From a virus (Duplodnaviria > Caudoviricetes): 64,000 bases of DNA. Position 1 is the stretch's first letter. Each line of letters begins with the position of its first letter. The notes below the pieces were generated by a model. That model searched no databases. It saw only the letters and a list, made by a program, of their open reading frames with translations, and had not been told where the DNA came from. The position numbers and the translations under genes are program-made. Shown here piece by piece: positions 1 to 34,498 of the stretch. The stretch covers positions 1 to 64,000 of IMG/VR virus record IMGVR_UViG_3300033120_000868; one strand, 5' to 3'.

Positions 1-139
1 TTATAACATCGGTTTTGCTCTATTTCGGTTTAGTGCTTAACCAATGTTCGGTTTGTATTTGTTAATTTTGTTTTTAAATCTAATTTTTTGGCTTACTTTT
101 CCGCAACAAAGCAAAGCCGAGAACCGTTATGTGTAATGC
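1..139 (+). mobile_element. attC-like hairpin recombination site 1 (left end truncated by window)
   Basis: TATAAC-A-TCGGTTTTGCT ... AGCAAAGCCGA-GAACC-GTTATGT imperfect inverted repeat; GTT core at 126-128. Confidence 0.75.
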
Positions 140-141
140 TA

Positions 142-396
142 TTAACCTTTGCTTTTAGAATTATTACGTGTTAAATTAGACAAGTAATAAGCACAAGTAA
201 CAACTGTTAGCCATAATGCAAAGTTCCACATATCATAAGATATTTTATCAAAAAATATTTCAATTGGATTTATAGCTTTTAAATGCCATCCTTCATATAT
301 TAGAAAGAATATTGTTTCTAATAACCAAACAAAAGTTCCTCCAATCCAAAAAATTTTTGCTAATTTCCAAATAGTTTTCAGTTCTTTATTTTTCAT
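142..396 (-). CDS. cassette-borne small membrane protein (2 TM)
   Basis: ORF between sites 1 and 2 with two hydrophobic helices; start taken at ATG 396. Confidence 0.7.
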   Translation of the reverse strand: MKNKELKTIWKLAKIFWIGGTFVWLLETIFFLIYEGWHLKAINPIEIFFDKISYDMWNFALWLTVVTCAYYLSNLTRNNSKSKG

Positions 397-412
397 TTTA
401 TAATTATTTAAA

Positions 413-556
413 GCACTACACATAACAGCATATTACCGCTATGGCTTTGCTTTGTTTTATCCGAAATGTGTCGGCTCACTTAATTTTTGTTTTTTTTTGT
501 TATCTTTTTGCTTTAATACGCCACATCGTTAATATGCGAAACGTTAGCGGTAATGC
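413..556 (+). mobile_element. attC-like hairpin recombination site 2
   Basis: GCACTACACATAAC-A-GCATATTACCGCTATGGC ... GCCACATCGTTAATATGC-GAAAC-GTTAGCGGTAATGC. Confidence 0.8.
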
Positions 557-750
557 TTTGATAAATACTTTTCGACAATATCTATCATTTGTAATTCGTC
601 ATTGTATATATCGTAAAATCCATCAACATCTTCTAAATGTGGTCTGCTGGTTAATTTTTTAACTATTTCTTTAGCGTGGTAATTAGCACTAACCATAACA
701 CCAGTTTTGCAAGATTGCTTGTTTTGTGATTTTTTGGAAACTTTAGTCAT
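544..750 (-). CDS. cassette-associated hypothetical protein
   Basis: 68-aa ORF that starts inside the loop of site 3 and stops at the G|TTA core of site 2. Confidence 0.6.
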   Translation of the reverse strand: MTKVSKKSQNKQSCKTGVMVSANYHAKEIVKKLTSRPHLEDVDGFYDIYNDELQMIDIVEKYLSKHYR

Positions 751-833
751 AATTTTAAGTGTATTTTGTATTTGTTAATTTTAGGTTTTTAGTTCGCAAC
801 CTCGCAAAGCCAAAAATCGTTATAGCAAATGCT
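686..833 (+). mobile_element. attC-like hairpin recombination site 3
   Basis: GCACTAACCATAAC-ACCAGTTTTGCAAGATTGC ... GCAACCTCGCAAAGCC-AAAAATC-GTTATAGCAAATGCT. Confidence 0.8.
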
Positions 834-1020
834 AGAAATCAATATCCGTTACAATAAATGTTTCATTACAATCTTCGCAAGTAATTTCTATATCAATTCC
901 AATTGCTCTGTGGTCTTCTTCCATGTGGTCTTTAACTTCATCAAAAATGTCTAACCCATATCCGCAATTAGGACATGTACATAATACCTCAATGAATGTT
1001 GATGCTTTTACTTCTTTCAT
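832..1020 (-). CDS. cassette-borne zinc-ribbon protein
   Basis: CPNC ... CEDC motif; start at ATG 1020. Confidence 0.7.
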   Translation of the reverse strand: MKEVKASTFIEVLCTCPNCGYGLDIFDEVKDHMEEDHRAIGIDIEITCEDCNETFIVTDIDF

Positions 1021-1033
1021 TTTGTTTAATTTT

Positions 1034-1210
1034 TTAAGCACTTGCTATAACACCAGTTTGTTGCAATTGCAAGTTTTGGTTATTTTCAGCAATCTTTAGT
1101 GCTTTAATTGTATCGGCAACTAATTTTTTACCTGTTGTGGTAAGTGAATCGGTAAGTTTCCAATCAAATTTGTCGTGTAATATCTTAAGAACTTCTTCGT
1201 AATGTTTCAT
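1034..1210 (-). CDS. hypothetical protein (58 aa, not in ORF track)
   Basis: MKHYEEVLKILHDKFDW...QTGVIASA; C-terminus is encoded by the half site. Confidence 0.65.
   Translation of the reverse strand: MKHYEEVLKILHDKFDWKLTDSLTTTGKKLVADTIKALKIAENNQNLQLQQTGVIASA
1037..1075 (+). mobile_element. attC-like half site (left arm only)
   Basis: AGCACTTGCTATAAC-ACCAGTTTG resembles the left arm of site 3; no matching right arm seen. Confidence 0.6.
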
Positions 1211-1467: not shown

Positions 1468-1716
1468 TTATTTCTTTTTTCTCTGTTCTTTTCTTCTCTG
1501 TCTTCTTTTTTCTCGCCCTGATAAATACTCTTGAGTGTGGTCTACTTGTTCAATAGTGAAGACTTTATTTAGTGGTGGTGAAGAAGTTACTTCATCTGTT
1601 TCAAAATTTCTATACACTTGCATATCTTCTGTTGTTTGTGCTAAATAATTAGCTGTGTGTGATGCAATACCTAACTTACCTCCTATAAGTGATACTTTTG
1701 GCTTTTCTTCTTTCAT
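1468..1716 (-). CDS. hypothetical protein with basic C-terminus
   Basis: 82-aa ORF on the coding strand. Confidence 0.6.
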   Translation of the reverse strand: MKEEKPKVSLIGGKLGIASHTANYLAQTTEDMQVYRNFETDEVTSSPPLNKVFTIEQVDHTQEYLSGREKRRQRRKEQRKKK

Positions 1717-1734
1717 TGTTTTTCAGCGAAAAAG

Positions 1735-2157
1735 TTAAAAAGACAGCTTTTTTATAGCTTCTTCTATTGTAATTGGTTCTCTATTAAATTTTATATTCTT
1801 CATACCACGTAATCTTTCACTAATTCTTTCAATTAAAATTGGTTTAGCTTCTGTATCGTCCCAATCGTTGTATAATTCGGGCGGTAAAGACTGAAAACAA
1901 GAGGAATAATCTTCAACGTTATAACCACGTCTTAACAATTCTTGATACAAAGCATCACTTCTTTTATGTAGATATTTCAGACGTGGGTAATACCATTTTA
2001 CGTGCCCTTGTCCGAGCGAATATGTTTTTGGTATATCTTTTACAACCGCACGCCCTGACTTAATTGTATTTGGTATGCGAACAAGTTCTCTATATTCTGA
2101 GAACAAATGTGTGTCACAAAGATTACCTACTTTTACCCCTGAATTAATACGTGTCAT
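1735..2157 (-). CDS. denV: pyrimidine-dimer DNA glycosylase / endonuclease V
   Basis: MTRIN...L.D.HL..EYREL.RI and LG.GHV..Y motifs of the T4 endonuclease V family. Confidence 0.92.
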   Translation of the reverse strand: MTRINSGVKVGNLCDTHLFSEYRELVRIPNTIKSGRAVVKDIPKTYSLGQGHVKWYYPRLKYLHKRSDALYQELLRRGYNVEDYSSCFQSLPPELYNDWDDTEAKPILIERISERLRGMKNIKFNREPITIEEAIKKLSF

Positions 2158-2177
2158 AATTTTTAAGTTTTGTTTTG

Positions 2178-2209
2178 CAAATATAGTGATTATTTTTTAA
2201 GTGGACAAA
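2178..2209 (-). promoter_or_regulatory. Bacteroidota sigma-type promoter; representative of ~20 minus-strand copies (near 4508, 6135, 8400, 11583, 13173, 13286, 15017, 19152, 23347, 25081, 26328, 29758, 32232, 33072, 34778, 34904)
   Basis: minus strand TTTG-N20-TATATTTG, matching the -33/-7 consensus TTTG/TAnnTTTG. Confidence 0.8.
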
Positions 2210-3921
2210 TATAATTTGTCTTTTTTACAAAATTATTTTTTGTTTTTATTCTTTTTCGGCGAAATTAGTACAATCCACTCTCTTGTTCAAAGATACATTC
2301 TGCAATTATCCACTCAAAATCTGCTCCATAAATCTGCTTTACTTCATCTATACCGCTATAATAAGCCTGAACATATTTTTCTACCTCATCTGAACTATAA
2401 TCATCTAAATCTATAGTAATTTGAATAAACTCATTTTTACCATAATCTAATAAACCTCTATTCTTTTCTTTAAACTCATAAACGTTTGTTGATATTTGTC
2501 TACCATATTGTTTATTATCTAAATCTGTACATTTCCATTGTTTCATATTGTTTATTTTTTGCGGGAAAAAGATTAAGAACAGACTCTTAATTTTTCCAAT
2601 TGATTATTAACTGATTCTTTTATTTCTTTAATAGCTGATTTAGGTACTCTGAAACTGACTACTTTTGTTTCTTCTTGGTAAATTAAAGGTCTACCAACTG
2701 ATTTATTCTCTGTCATTAGATATCCTTTAAAAATTCCTCAATAAATTGTGCTGTTAACTCGTCTTGTTCTTTTGTTGTCCAATACTCTAATTCACATTTA
2801 ATTACCTTTTCAGAAGTTTTACTAACTATAAAATTATTAACTTCTTCTTTGTTTGGATTATCTGTATAAATATCAATACAAATATCTTTCCTCCAATCCT
2901 CGCTTACACTTAATCTGAATTTTACTCTGTTAGTATATCCTTCAAATTCTTCTTTTGAGTATCTGTATCCGTTGTTTATTAGTATTTTCATAATTGAGGC
3001 TGATTAAAAATTATTAATTCAATATCTTGGTTAGTGTAACATTCTTTGTTAATTTGTTTTGCTCTGTTTTCTATTTCTTGCTGTTTAGCTTTTTGCCCGA
3101 CAAAAATCCCGCCTAAAAGAGATAAAAAACAAATAGATAAAAGAACTGCTATAATAATACCTAAAATATTAATTCTTCTTTCAGCTAAACCAATGTACCT
3201 TAATACAGAAATAGGTGTTGTTAAATAATCTTCTTCTGCGTTTTGTCTATAATATTTTAAATCTTTTTTCATATCTCGTTTTCTGAATTATACATTAGTA
3301 TTAAAAAAATTACTTGTAAGGTTAAGAACATAAGAGGTAAGATTGAACCAAACTTTGCTTGAAATGAAAAATTACCTATGAACATAGTTGTTGCTACTGC
3401 TCCACAACTTGTACTTAAAACTAAAAATAATGTTTTGTATTTCATAAATTCCAAATTAAAAAGTAAATAATAACTACTGCTAAAAATGTTAGGAAATAAT
3501 ATACTCCTACTGATGCTTGTCTTTTCATAATAGATTTCTTTTTATTTTTTGTCGCCGAAAAAAGAATAAAAATGGAAATGAGATTAATTTATTTTAAAAA
3601 GTATAGTGTTATAATAATAATTAAAAACACAATTAAAAATTTAATTCTAATTGATATATCTCTTTTTGTTAAAAATTTTTCACGCTTAATTTCCTCATCT
3701 GTTGGTTTTTTAACCTCTTTTACAACTTTCTCTTTAACAAATTTCTTTTTTGATATAGGCGAATTAATAACAAATAACATAGAAATAATTGGACTAAAAA
3801 ATATAGACAGAAGAAATGAATTAACAAATCCTATTTCCTTCTTTCCTCCTTGTTTACCTACTAAGTAAGATAAACCTAAGTTAATTAATAAAATACTAAG
3901 TAATACCATAATATAAGTTTT

Positions 3922-4203
3922 TTAATTTAAAATTTCTAATTCATAACCAATTTGTTCTAATTCTAAAGCAAGGTCTTTATAGTCGTTATAAGAGGCGTTC
4001 TCTACTTTGTGAACTCCTACTTCATTTTTGTTAAGAAAGTCCTCGTGAATAGCTGTATGTTGTCCTATGTGAGCATAACCTTCATATAATACTTCCCCTC
4101 TTTCATCTGTTTGTGAGTGTTCGGGAAAAATAGCGTTAATTTCTACTATTGGATTTTCTCCGTTGAACCAATAAATCTTTTTGAATACTACTTTTGTTTT
4201 CAT
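3922..4203 (-). CDS. hypothetical phage protein
   Basis: 93-aa ORF; AIFPE...YAHIGQH...ELE.IGY.L pattern recalled from other phage early proteins. Confidence 0.6.
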   Translation of the reverse strand: MKTKVVFKKIYWFNGENPIVEINAIFPEHSQTDERGEVLYEGYAHIGQHTAIHEDFLNKNEVGVHKVENASYNDYKDLALELEQIGYELEILN

Positions 4204-6184
4204 AATTTTAAGAGTAATAAATTTCTAAATCGTTACCTAATTTTAAAGAACTTTCAATTTGTTCTAAAAGAAAATCTTTTTGTTGTTTTAAATCGTTGTA
4301 AACTTCATTAATTGAGAAAGCTACATTTTCAAATCTGAACCAAAGTTCTTTTTTAGTTTGTGTTAAGTCTTGATGATATTTTTCAAGTGTTTTTAATTCT
4401 GTTTTTACTTTTTCTGCGGAAATTTCGCCACGTAAAAAACTGAAAAACAAATGACTAACTTTTGACTGATATTGTGTTAATACTTTCATATCGTTTAATT
4501 TATTTTACAAATGTAATGTTTTTTATTTAGTTTACAAAATTATTTCTGTTAAAATTTCAAAATCGTTTGTCATATCGTATAAAGTATCATTATTATCTCT
4601 ATGAAAAGGAATAAAGTAAATCTTTTTTGATATTAACATAACTAAATCTCCATAAGTCCCAAAGAATTTTGTATATACTATTTCTGATAAATCAAAAACT
4701 TCTTGGCTATTTTTATGTTGTACTTTCATTTTAAAGATACTTTTTAAATTCTTCAATTTGCTTTTTAGTTAACTTCTGTTTCAAAGTGTGGTGTTCTTCA
4801 TACTCATCATTTTTATTATTAATTTGTTTAATGATTGAGTATTTTATTAGTTTTTTGTCGGGCAAAGAAAAACTCATCAAAGCCATTTTAAAACTATATT
4901 TCTTAATATCAAACACAACCTCAATATATTTTTCTATTGGTGTGTCGAGTTCTGTATGTTGTAAGTAGTGTTCCATAATTAAGTTATTTTAAGGTTCTTT
5001 GTTTTTTGGCACAAGAAGAATAAACAAAACTGATTAAATCAAATAAACGAACTAAAACATCATCTTGTTGTTGGTATCTCTCATCGTAAGAGAACTCAAT
5101 AATAACATCATTTCCAATTTGATAAAAACTATTTATATGTTGTTTAGTTTTTAAAACATTTCTTGCGTAAGATTCAATTAATTTTCTGTTCATAATTATT
5201 CTGTTTCTGTCATTGCATAATTTATAAAAGAAAGATAGTTTTGATAGTGTGTTTTACCATTATCATAGTATTCAAGAAAGTCTATAAAATACTCTAAAAC
5301 TTCATTACTTAAATTATATTTTTCTTGTTGCCAATTTTTAAAGTCCTCGATAATATCTTCCGTTTCGATTCCTCTGTTTTCAATAGCTTGTTCAATACGT
5401 TTTTCATCTTCTTTTGTGAAGCGGTCTTTTCTATATAAGTCTAAAATTTTCATAATTAAATATAATTAAAGTTATCAATATCATAATCTAAAGTTTCCAA
5501 AAGAAGTTCTTTATCTTCATAAAACAAAGTAACTGCTCTTAACATTGCAGGTACAACCGTTTCTGCATCTTCTTCCCACTCTGTAAAGTGCCAATAACAA
5601 ATTGGAATAATATCCCTTTCTCCGCCAAAACTGATGTAAATAGAAACACTTTCGTTGTCTTGGTCTAAGTGTAGATTATTTAAAATATATTCTCTTGATA
5701 GTTTCATAACTTGTTGTTTTAAAATGTTTTGTAAAGATAGTAAAATTTCCGCAAAGAAAAAAGAAACAGATTAAAAATTTTCTTCTTGAATTTCTTTATA
5801 TGCTTGTGCGAGTTCTAAAATATACTCTAAATTCTCTTGGTCTAATTCTTCATAAGTTAAACTATAACTATCAATTTCTACTTCATCATCATATACTTCA
5901 ACATCTACATCGTCTTGGTTAAAATATTCAATTAAATGGTGTAGATTACCTTTTTGGTTTGGCACACTTGGACTATAACTTGCTTGCACTTCTCCTGTTC
6001 CAAAACCTCCGTATTCTGAAATAATTTCTTTTATTTGTTCAATTACTTCTTTTTTAGCGGAATTATTAATTAAATTTCCGTCTGTTTCTTCGTGTGTGTA
6101 AATTGCCATAATATTGTGTTTTAAATTGTTAATCAAAGATAAGGATTCTTTTTTAATTTTCCGCAAAAAAGAATAAAAAACAGC

Positions 6185-24140: not shown

Positions 24141-24290
24141 AATGAGGTACAACGTTTTGTGGCTTGTAAAAGTTGCGTGCAAGTACAAACCGTTATTTTT
24201 AATTTTTTCTCTGCCGAATCCACGCAAGAAACGGACTTTCAATTTAGCCTTTAACAGCAATTTTTACAAACCGCTGTTAGCAGTAGTATT
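24141..24290 (-). mobile_element. attC-like site B
   Basis: minus strand: AATACTACTGCTAAC-AGC-GGTTTGTAAAAATTGC ... GCAACTTTTACAAGCC-ACAAAAC-GTTGTACCTCATT. Confidence 0.82.
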
Positions 24291-24339
24291 TTTGTAAAGT
24301 TAAATATTTTCTACTATCTTTGGTCAAAATTTTTTACTT

Positions 24340-24624
24340 ATGTCTGAAGATAACTTCTTTTCTAATATAATTATACCTGATTTAACTGAAATAACATTAA
24401 GAGATTTTAAAAAAGTTTTAACTCTTATTGACACGTCTTTAATTCTGTATAAAAAAGATGATTTAAGTATGACTAAACAAGAAAAAATAGATTCTTATAA
24501 AGCATATTGTAGAAAATACTTAGAAAAAGAATTTGAAAATTTAGTTTACGATGATAAAGTAATATTGGATAAGTTTTTCAATATGCACGGAACTAAAGCT
24601 ATTCAGGAACATTTAGAAGATTGA
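24340..24624 (+). CDS. cassette B plus-strand hypothetical protein
   Basis: TTTG-N20-TATCTTTG promoter (24291-24322), then AAAATTTTTTACTT-ATG. Confidence 0.65.
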   Translation: MSEDNFFSNIIIPDLTEITLRDFKKVLTLIDTSLILYKKDDLSMTKQEKIDSYKAYCRKYLEKEFENLVYDDKVILDKFFNMHGTKAIQEHLED

Positions 24625-24907
24625 GAAATCTGCTTTTTATATCTCTACCTAAATCTCTTGTCTTAACAGTTAATACAGGAGAAAGCATTTCTCGTATGTT
24701 TTTTTCATTCCCTTCTGCAATATATTGTCTTGCAAAATTAATGTAACTTTCGTCTTTTAAAAGATTGCTATAATTATCATATTCAAATCTTAAATAATTA
24801 GAAATATATTCTAACAACTCTTCTGTTTTTTCTTTTGATTCTTCTGAAAGAGTATGGACTTCACTATTAAATTCATCTAATAGTATTTTTAGATTCTCTG
24901 ATACCAT
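24599..24907 (-). CDS. cassette B minus-strand hypothetical protein
   Basis: 102-aa ORF starting just after the crossover of site C. Confidence 0.65.
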   Translation of the reverse strand: MVSENLKILLDEFNSEVHTLSEESKEKTEELLEYISNYLRFEYDNYSNLLKDESYINFARQYIAEGNEKNIREMLSPVLTVKTRDLGRDIKSRFLNLLNVPE

Positions 24908-24934
24908 AATATTTTTCAGCAGTTTAACGTCTTT

Positions 24935-25074
24935 AATATTACTGCTAACGTTTAGCTTGTAGCAGGTGTTAATATATTTACTGCCTTCAGCTTATTAATA
25001 ATTAATTTAGTTTTTCTTGTAGCTTCCAAACTCTCCCAAGCCTAACACTTGCTATAAATAAGTGTTATAATTTT
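24935..25074 (-). mobile_element. attC-like site C (promoter-proximal)
   Basis: minus strand: AAAATTATAAC-ACTTATTTATAGCAAGTGTTA ... TAACACCTGCTACAAGCTAAAC-GTTAGCAGTAATATT; TACATTTG promoter at 25081-25088. Confidence 0.75.
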
Positions 25075-34083: not shown

Positions 34084-34426
34084 AGTATTAAATGCGAAAA
34101 GACCTAAAACACAAAAACCTTTCCTGAAGTAGTGAGGGAAAAGTTCTTTTGATGTGTTTTAAGCCTTTCGTCTTAAAAATATTTTTTAATCGTCAATAGC
34201 TCACTACTTCTATATTAGATTACCGATATGTCTTTTTTAACGTCCACTATAAAAGCTAAATGAATTATAAGGGACGGATTGTTTAAACTACAATTCTAAA
34301 GTTAAAATAACCTTACTCATCCTGAGCGTATTCTTGCACCTGTATATGAGGGGACTCTTTTTAAATTTACACAAAACACATATTGCGATTCGCGATTTCC
34401 TTCCTGCAAATGCGGGATGAACTTAG

Positions 34427-34498
34427 TTGATTTAAAAGGATTTGAACCTCTACTAAATGCGTCAAAGGCATTTGTGCTAACCGTTACACTATAAATCA
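34427..34498 (-). tRNA. tRNA-Gln (anticodon UUG)
   Basis: TGATTTA/TAAATCA acceptor stem, GTGT/GCAC D-stem, AATGC-CTTTGAC-GCATT anticodon arm, AGAGG-TTCAAAT-CCTTT T-arm; CCA not encoded. Confidence 0.9.

Follow-up and report, generated by a model that had tools for sequence, protein, structure and literature searches.

An integron-like array of gene cassettes at the contig ends of a large Flavobacterium-type phage

Introduction

We wanted to know whether a row of small genes in a large phage, each separated from the next by an imperfect hairpin, is made of mobile cassettes of the integron kind, and which enzyme could move them. Integrons are seen as belonging to bacteria and as defined by the IntI insertion. 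The DNA that raises the question (the window) comprises bases 1-64000 of a 143,493-bp IMG/VR virus record (G000; 29.7% G+C). An original prediction, made from the letters of the window alone, had described its beginning as a phage-borne array of integron-like cassettes, probably served by a host integron-type tyrosine recombinase. According to the IntegronFinder 2.0 study, integrons are very rare in Bacteroidetes (PMC9024848).

Organization of the array

The top strand of a site was defined as the one reading TAACA...CGTTA. The following parts were delineated in the first 1,210 bases of the window.

1-7, + strand: TTATAAC, the last bases of the closing arm of a preceding cassette that is out of view, at the contig start
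4-129, top strand +: attC-like site 1, 126 nt, from TAAC (4-7) to GTTA (126-129), aligned with 39 other elements
126-140, + strand: opening arm of cassette A, GTTATGTGTAATGCT, matching its closing partner at 14/15, mismatch at position 11
142-396, - strand: gene A, 84 aa with two hydrophobic stretches, no family match
412-426, + strand: closing arm of cassette A, AGCACTACACATAAC, pairing 14/15 with the opening arm at 126
423-546, + strand: attC-like site 2, 124 nt, inside which the identity to the contig end starts at AAAC/GTTA (539-546)
543-557, + strand: opening arm of cassette B, GTTAGCGGTAATGCT, just 11/15 to the closing arm
544-750, - strand: gene B, 68 aa, no family match
685-699, + strand: closing arm of cassette B, AGCACTAACCATAAC, degenerate and coding, placed by arm comparison
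696-822, + strand: attC-like site 3, 127 nt, 81-86% identical to sites of phages tooticki6-1 and 6H
819-833, + strand: opening arm of cassette C, GTTATAGCAAATGCT, 14/15, at the left edge of a 100% identity to another phage contig (L373, see below)
832-1020, - strand: gene C, 62 aa, zinc-ribbon-like (CxxC...CxxC), matching phrog_6504 (function unknown)
1037-1051, + strand: closing arm of cassette C, AGCACTTGCTATAAC, pairing 14/15 with the arm at 819
1048-1072, + strand: truncated attC-like site, TAAC (1048-1051) and the left arm only, at the far end of the array, recognized by comparison with L373
1034-1210, - strand: 58-aa ORF, the first resident gene beside the array, no family

The three units between these sites contain one small minus-strand ORF apiece. 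The product of gene A looks like a small membrane protein. The start codon and first ~18 residues of gene B fall within site 3, with an alternative ATG at 696, and the last ~15 codons of the ORF at 1034-1210 traverse the truncated site and the closing arm of cassette C. Neither Pfam nor PHROGs gave a function for the cassette genes, and Rfam found no RNA family in the region.

The arms that the original prediction had quoted were all in place. So were the three full sites and one half site that it had seen between single small genes, the half being a truncated cassette C site, and the partial match of its middle unit, which amounts to 11/15. Measured from TAAC to GTTA, the full sites have 126, 124 and 127 nt, or about 150 nt with the arms counted, which makes the predicted hairpin size of 130-145 bp approximate.

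The supposition that the array may extend left of the window also held. G000 is rated complete by CheckV, and end repeats are absent. The contig closes with 356 bases (143138-143493) that are the same as window 539-894, and this identity opens at AAAC followed directly by GTTAGCGG, which is the cassette junction AAAC/GTTA at window 539-546. This indicates that the contig wraps, window 1-538 being a tip whose left neighbour is unknown. We suspect a junction polymorphism at 539, for which there are no read data. About 18 further cassettes lie outside window 1-1082, at 134.8-143.5 kb of G000. Window 1-1082 is thus the far end of a single array that wraps round the contig ends and counts ~21 cassettes over ~10.8 kb (134,953-143,493 of G000 plus window 1-1082). 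The cassettes occupy ~7% of this large 143-kb Flavobacterium-type phage genome.

Paired arms of the cassettes

If these units are cassettes of the integron kind, each should begin with bases complementary to the inverse core of the site it carries. To look at this, we compared the 15-nt arm that opens a unit with the reverse complement of the arm that closes it. In the window, the arms matched at 14/15 positions in cassettes A and C and at 11/15 in cassette B. Over the ~21 units of the array, the arms pair at 11-15 of 15 positions, most at 14/15, and the pairing partner of a unit's end is the other end of the same unit and not the neighbouring site. Within the 10.8-kb array zone there are 18 arm pairs matching at 13/15 or better; the remaining 133 kb has 3, and a shuffled genome ~3.

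In the units that pair at 14/15 (13 of 21), the sole mismatch falls at position 11, with the count starting at the G of GTTA; the opening arm reads A there, and the complement of the closing arm reads G. Cassettes of the Flavobacterium phages tooticki6-1 and 6H and of the viral contigs L373-L375 keep this mismatch as well. Only TAAC and GTTA are invariant in the arms. The adjoining bases form a variable barcode (for instance ACATAAC / GTTATGT or CGCTAAC / GTTAGCG), to be compared with the attC consensus RYYYAAC / GTTRRRY for R'' and R'. Homologues of gene C are found in the protein database and in three other viral contigs. In two of these (L374 and L375, 71% aa identity), the cassette arms are GTTACCAGTAATGTT and AACACTACTGGTAAC; their barcode differs from that of cassette C, yet they are complementary to each other and retain the position-11 mismatch. 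The opening arm of cassette B, GTTAGCGGTAATGCT, recurs on a cassette of Flavobacterium phage 6H. The criterion set out above, which also asks that cassettes be joined at a GTT core, is satisfied.

Structure of the attC-like sites

We then looked at whether the sites form hairpins. Single-sequence DNA folding of the three window sites was no better than that of shuffles (z between -1.3 and +1.2). Folding with RNA parameters gave z values of about -1.5 to -5.8 for 22 sites of the phage. The window's three sites are among the weakest of the array. The cognate left and right arms of a site paired at -23.5 kcal/mol on the + strand and -28.0 on the - strand, against about -10 for arms of different sites, and by arm pairing energy the cognate partner ranked first in 17 of 21 sites. 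For site 1, the arm duplex reached -19.8 on + and -23.3 on -.

To follow the pairing over evolution, we aligned 17 elements of this phage with 23 of other viral contigs (40 in all). Their consensus consists of two helices, of 11 and 6 bp, under an AT-rich loop of ~80 nt. Compensatory changes were present in 16 of the 17 pairs. Paired cells made up 86.3% of the alignment, as against 61.9% in shuffles and 38-45% when the partners were slid, and the covariation score was 0.546 versus 0.146, with none of 500 shuffles reaching 0.546. Helix 1 contains a conserved T.G pair, and an asymmetric internal loop (1 nt versus 5-6 nt) separates it from the TAAC/GTTA box. The hairpin is thus shown by the pairing of cognate arms and by covariation, not by single-sequence folding. 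These results meet the criterion for attC sites, namely an imperfect palindrome R''-L''...L'-R' whose pairing is maintained by covariation. The asymmetries present (arm position-11 mismatch, helix-1 T.G, internal loop) differ from the extrahelical G and T bulges that govern the choice of strand in classical attC sites.

A greater stability of the bottom strand was considered as a further argument. It is seen in this phage and is absent over 278 viral elements, and we dropped the argument because it was not upheld across that set. In addition, the same site type is found again with unrelated genes on either side of it. Either exchange also occurs at TAAC or the sites have been homogenised.

Sharing of cassettes between phages

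A mobile cassette should be found in different surroundings with its edges at the core. The contig L373 belongs to a 66.7-kb record of an unrelated phage, 96% complete. Cassette C is 100% identical to it over ~245 nt (window 818 to ~1062). The identity begins exactly at CGTTA, and the left flanks are unrelated. Past TAAC it persists for 21-25 nt, after which the window diverges into the ORF at 1034-1210. In L373, the counterpart of cassette C is followed by a complete ~107-nt site. Since the window shares only the first 21-25 nt of that site, the half site is the truncated site of cassette C. At least at this end, the array has decayed, as the truncated site marks.

A second cassette, at 139780-140124 of G000 (a gene and a 90-nt site), is 98% identical to L373. 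Its left boundary is CGTTA and its right boundary CGTTAT, and outside them the sequences are unrelated, which indicates that the shared unit runs from GTTA to GTTA on the + strand, like an integron cassette. In total, the two shared cassettes have 97-100% nucleotide identity and boundaries within 1-2 nt of CGTTA. No other DNA common to the L373 genome and 19 kb of the window was found, and the L373 genome contains no tyrosine recombinase. Such identity to cassettes of an unrelated, recombinase-less phage points to recent exchange.

Other comparisons gave the same edges or a change of content. The similarity of site 3 to sites of cultured Flavobacterium phages of other families (tooticki6-1 and 6H) spans exactly TAAC to CGTTA. 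A 132-kb relative (G007) has syntenic genes with 44-47% aa identity (three tblastn matches, including a DenV-like gene) and patches of collinear nucleotide similarity to G000. Its array sits at the syntenic place and holds cassettes unrelated to those of G000. A single-protein search with the DenV-like gene found no relatives. For gene A, a homologue with 60% identity is present in a cassette of the viral contig L012, with a different barcode, and an exact 30-mer of the gene occurs in no other viral contig. The L012 cassette suggested that gene A and its lower-side site are linked, which we consider too weak because that stem type occurs in ~14% of the elements.

Distribution of the sites and associated recombinases

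The two-arm site pattern matches more than 240 stretches of IMG/VR viral contigs. The commonest right arm is present in more than 120 genome contigs, nearly all of Bacteroidota, versus ~17 expected by chance, and many of these loci contain arrays of ~126-nt elements. In all five isolate genomes examined (Schleiferia thermophila, Kaistella palustris with two loci, Kaistella jeonii, Chryseobacterium sp. Leaf180 and Flavobacterium calami), the array lies 0.1-3 kb from a tyrosine recombinase gene. For the six recombinases beside these arrays, the best model was NF040815 (XerA/integron integrase) in every case. The array-adjacent recombinases of hosts and phages score 165-215 bits on TIGR02249, below the cut-off of 265. 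In the five complete proteins, the TIGR02249 match is split (2-179 and 236-315) and skips positions ~180-235, the location of the IntI-specific insertion; the sixth protein is incomplete because its contig ends within it. Among solved structures, archaeal XerA (4A8E, 5HXY) is closest, followed by IntI4 and XerD. The bacterial array recombinases carry an extra N-terminal region of 75-125 aa. Judged by these sequence matches, the array-linked recombinase is Xer/IntI-like and lacks the IntI-specific insertion. Smyshlyaev et al. described the IntI insertion as not fully conserved in an integron-like subgroup (PMC8138268).

A shorter homologue (~270 aa) is encoded at 15 of 237 phage loci. At 13-14 of these 15, the recombinase gene and the array diverge and the top strand of the array is directed away from the gene, as in integrons. 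In G007, the platform consists of a 275-aa recombinase gene at 101470-102297 (-), whose product is 38% identical to the Kaistella enzyme, and six sites at 102649-106695 (+). No such gene is present in G000: the absence of a recombinase that the original prediction had noted for the window extends to the whole 143-kb genome, where PF00589, PF01797 and PF00239 gave no match and tblastn queries with recombinases of hosts and phages detected neither a relative nor a remnant. Since this phage has no recombinase, we infer that a host or a co-infecting phage has to provide the enzyme in trans.

These results bear on the rest of the original prediction. The integron-like cassette pattern is supported by the arms of the ~21 units and by the near-identical, CGTTA-bounded cassettes. 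The proposed host integron-type tyrosine recombinase stands as to its working principle. It does not stand as to family membership, the IntI insertion being absent, nor as to its source: some phages, including a relative, encode the recombinase, so that the host need not supply it. The prediction would have been refuted if related phages carried the identical gene order with no gain or loss at the GTT core and no matching sites occurred near a host recombinase. The comparison of cassette content among related phages that it had called for revealed unrelated cassettes at the syntenic place in G007, and matching sites were found near recombinase genes in Bacteroidota chromosomes and some phages. 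With the CGTTA-bounded sharing, this means that both refuting conditions fail.

Orientation and expression of the cassette genes

The orientation of the genes relative to the sites differs between the two kinds of genome. Genes flanking sites in phages lie on the bottom strand in 260 cases versus 9 on the top strand, and those in bacteria on the top strand in 79 cases versus 19 on the bottom strand. In G000, the top strand is the + strand, which would place the recombinase-proximal end of the array near 134.8 kb and its opposite end in the window. Every gene between window 5200 and 1 lies on the minus strand, and the window cassettes would therefore be the first of the array to be transcribed. 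The TAnnTTTG promoter motif and the full Bacteroidota pattern were not above shuffles in the loops, on either strand. The cassette genes thus point in the direction of leftward transcription in the phage, and no promoter of their own is recognisable. Expression by read-through from upstream phage genes is likely, though inferred.

Comparison with known systems

Clusters of attC sites without an integron integrase (CALINs) were described in phage genomes by Qi et al. 2023, with 2-4 sites each (PMC9892861). Like them, G000 contains an integrase-less row of single-gene units separated by attC-like sites. The site P12002L_attC1 of a Polaribacter phage has the same order as the G000 sites: TAAC, stem, stem, CC-GTTA. 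It was called by HattCI alone, and it was the only one of six phage sites for which no attI1/attC junction was verified after IntI1 recombination; the junction of P12002L attC2 was verified (PMC9892861). Unlike the published CALINs with their 2-4 sites, G000 has ~21, and Qi 2023 (PMC9892861) does not report 15-nt barcoded arms with a fixed mismatch, reversed genes or a link to an Xer/IntI-like enzyme. With ~21 sites in 10.8 kb, G000 satisfies the CALIN criterion (at least two close attC sites with no integrase nearby) only provided that its sites count as attC-like.

Sedentary chromosomal integrons (IntI, attI and long arrays, as in Vibrio) share single promoterless genes, homogeneous ~125-nt sites, a GTT-core crossover, first cassette bases complementary to the cassette's own inverse core and, where a recombinase gene is present, its divergence from the array. 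Unlike in those integrons, the array-linked recombinase lacks the IntI insertion and falls below the integron-integrase cut-off, the complementarity of the G000 type extends to 15 nt with an obligatory mismatch, the phage genes are antisense to the top strand of the sites, and G000 has no recombinase. The strict integron criterion, an IntI with the additional domain beside the array, is not met. The system is integron-like in its working and not a member of the integron family.

The PeSLs of T4-type phages, in which a promoter is joined to a terminator-like stem-loop, are proposed to act via homology (PMC2839356, PMC4122927). They are the nearest phage-specific analogue, with repeated intergenic stem-loops on either side of small accessory genes, a plastic region in a large phage genome and a link to gene shuffling. 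In contrast to PeSLs, the G000 elements lack a promoter motif and have exact GTTA junctions and a dedicated recombinase family, and the PeSL criterion of an early promoter joined to the stem-loop in each repeat is not met. Archaeal XerA and bacterial XerC/D acting at dif resemble the array recombinases in that NF040815 is their best model and XerA structures are the closest. Xer/dif differs by resolving chromosome dimers at one duplex site, as against arrays of folded, cassette-bounding sites, and the bacterial array recombinases differ from it by their extra N-terminal 75-125 aa.

A literature search did not find a description of this site family, its recombinase or reversed phage cassettes. 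Also new here are the finding that cassette C and one other cassette are shared with an unrelated phage in near-identical, GTTA-bounded form, the reading of the half site as one that has been truncated, and the junction at 539.

Proposed mechanism and alternative explanations

From the observed anatomy, covariation, exact boundaries, near-identical sharing between unrelated phages and fixed layout of recombinase and array, we consider it probable that the units are mobile cassettes, exchanged at GTTA by an Xer/IntI-like recombinase supplied in trans, with the far end of their array in the window. A unit runs on the + strand from GTTA to GTTA and comprises an opening arm, a minus-strand gene, a closing arm ending in TAAC and an attC-like site, itself made up of an 11-bp helix with the conserved T.G, a 6-bp helix, an AT-rich loop of ~80 nt and a CGTTA end. 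In the excised circle, the two 15-nt arms may form the outer stem of the cassette's own folded site, which would be why they pair, and strand exchange inside GTTA at integration would split this stem. The exchange would be carried out by the tyrosine recombinase of the Xer/IntI-like kind encoded beside arrays in Bacteroidota chromosomes and some phages, here putatively provided in trans by the host or a co-infecting phage. Catalysis, a folded single-strand substrate, cleavage between G and TT and the action of the enzyme in trans are inferred, with no experiments or read data. Counting against this explanation are the single-sequence folds of the window sites, the junction result for P12002L_attC1, the recurrence of the site type, the 11/15 match of the middle unit and the truncated end.

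Some of these observations could also mean that the array is a fossil, an orphan CALIN-like cluster built in a recombinase-bearing ancestor and no longer recombining in this phage. The lack of a recombinase or remnant in G000, the truncated terminal site, the degenerate arms of the middle unit and the recombinase retained by the relative G007 would all fit. We nevertheless think this unlikely, in view of the two cassettes 97-100% identical to those of an unrelated phage that is also without a recombinase, which speak for recent exchange, and of the arms, most of which are intact at 14/15. Shuffling as proposed for PeSLs, in which general recombination would use the elements merely as portable homology, without a site-specific enzyme, has precedent in published PeSL-mediated shuffling in hyperplastic regions of phages (PMC2839356, PMC4122927), and the site types are indeed very similar between cassettes and between phages. 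Exchange by homology should end at varied points inside the repeat, and the identity edges instead fall within 1-2 nt of CGTTA. It also leaves unexplained the barcoded arms that pair across a gene and covary, no promoter motif is enriched in the loops, and the sites have a tight, oriented association with one recombinase family; we give this reading very little credence.

Two other explanations were weighed. That the sites act as intercistronic hairpins in the processing, stability or translational control of a leftward polycistronic transcript could be argued from their presence on the coding strand, from their somewhat better folding there in this phage (-28.0 versus -23.5) and from start codons that lie within some loops. 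As the site asymmetry is antisense to the genes in phages (260 versus 9) and sense in bacteria (79 versus 19), a single RNA cannot explain both orientations. The difference in strand stability fails across the 278 viral elements, and neither the GTTA-bounded sharing nor the recombinase link is accounted for, which leaves a primary RNA role next to no weight. A secondary RNA role of the sites is not excluded. It is scarcely tenable, too, that selfish MITE-like or REP-like hairpins were inserted between existing genes. The same TAAC/GTTA-delimited hairpin does lie between unrelated genes in unrelated phages, but after insertion into a palindromic target the flanks of the hairpin would pair, and here the flanks of the gene pair instead. 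Moreover, the unit shared between phages is a gene with its site, and G000 contains no HUH (Y1) transposase gene (PF01797).

Beyond the exchange of mobile cassettes that we favour, Bacteroidota and their phages may share one cassette-exchange network, run by an IntI-like recombinase without a domain supposed to be essential for attC recombination; phages lacking the recombinase, G000 among them, would trade cassettes during infection with an enzyme borrowed from the host or a co-infecting phage, and keep a separate pool of reversed-gene cassettes, readable by phage transcription. We give this wider proposal the same weight as its negation. A large phage keeps cassettes of integron design, recently exchanged with an unrelated phage, at sites tied to a simpler, Xer-like enzyme. 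The system offers a natural test of the need for the IntI insertion in folded-site recombination, and accessory genes of phages become recognisable by their flanks. If active, it would provide a site-specific route for such genes among phages as well as between phage and host. Methyltransferases are among the cassettes of tooticki6-1 and P12002L, and P12002L_attC1 lies between methyltransferase cassettes, as does its counterpart in Flavobacterium phage tooticki6-1.

Possible cassette exchange between phages

Sequence comparison of the contig end revealed that positions 143138-143493 of the full phage record (G000) are an exact copy of window 539-894, whereas the left flanks of this 356-nt repeat, which are window 1-538 at one copy and G000 up to 143137 at the other, have unrelated sequences. 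The breakpoint between the repeat and these flanks is AAAC|GTTA. Either the sampled population is polymorphic at this cassette junction, or a cassette has been duplicated.

We also found that a cassette at 1813-2069 (reverse complement) of L374, a viral contig, has arms, GTTATAAGAAATAGC and GCTACTTCTTATAAC, that are exactly those of the G000 cassette 137223-137503, and it may be a third cassette common to G000 and another phage. Barcoded arms were likewise detected in a Flavobacterium phage:

tooticki6-1 (L006) 1648-4508: three successive cassettes, each carrying one DNA methyltransferase

There, arm pairing reaches 13-14/15 and the position-11 mismatch is present. These cassettes mirror the methyltransferase CALIN, a cluster of attC sites lacking an integron integrase, of Polaribacter phage P12002L.

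Recombinases of a related phage and of bacteria

A complete platform was found in the 132-kb relative G007:

G007 101470-106695 (L376): 275-aa Xer/IntI-like recombinase, divergent from the sites, and six sites

The genes of this platform are reversed, and G000 lacks a counterpart of it. The array recombinases of five bacterial loci (L367, L368, L370-L372) possess an additional N-terminal region of 75-125 aa, which the phage forms (~270 aa) lack.

Site loops and other features of the window

The loops of attC-like sites 1 and 3 share one sequence:

window 52-69 and 765-782: exact 18-nt repeat TTTGTATTTGTTAATTTT

Promoter motifs were not enriched in the site loops. T-rich motifs resembling the 18-nt repeat also recur in site loops from other phages and, together with the repeat itself, indicate that loop sequence is constrained.

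Far from the array, window 24276-24949 holds a further barcoded pair, 14/15 complementary, whose position-11 mismatch has reversed polarity (G/A). Two other genes were identified:

window 1735-2157, (-): endonuclease V (DenV)-type pyrimidine-dimer DNA glycosylase, near the array
window 34426-34498, (-): tRNA-Gln (anticodon TTG)

The DenV-type gene is syntenic in G007, and the tRNA is the sole Rfam or ARAGORN match in the window.
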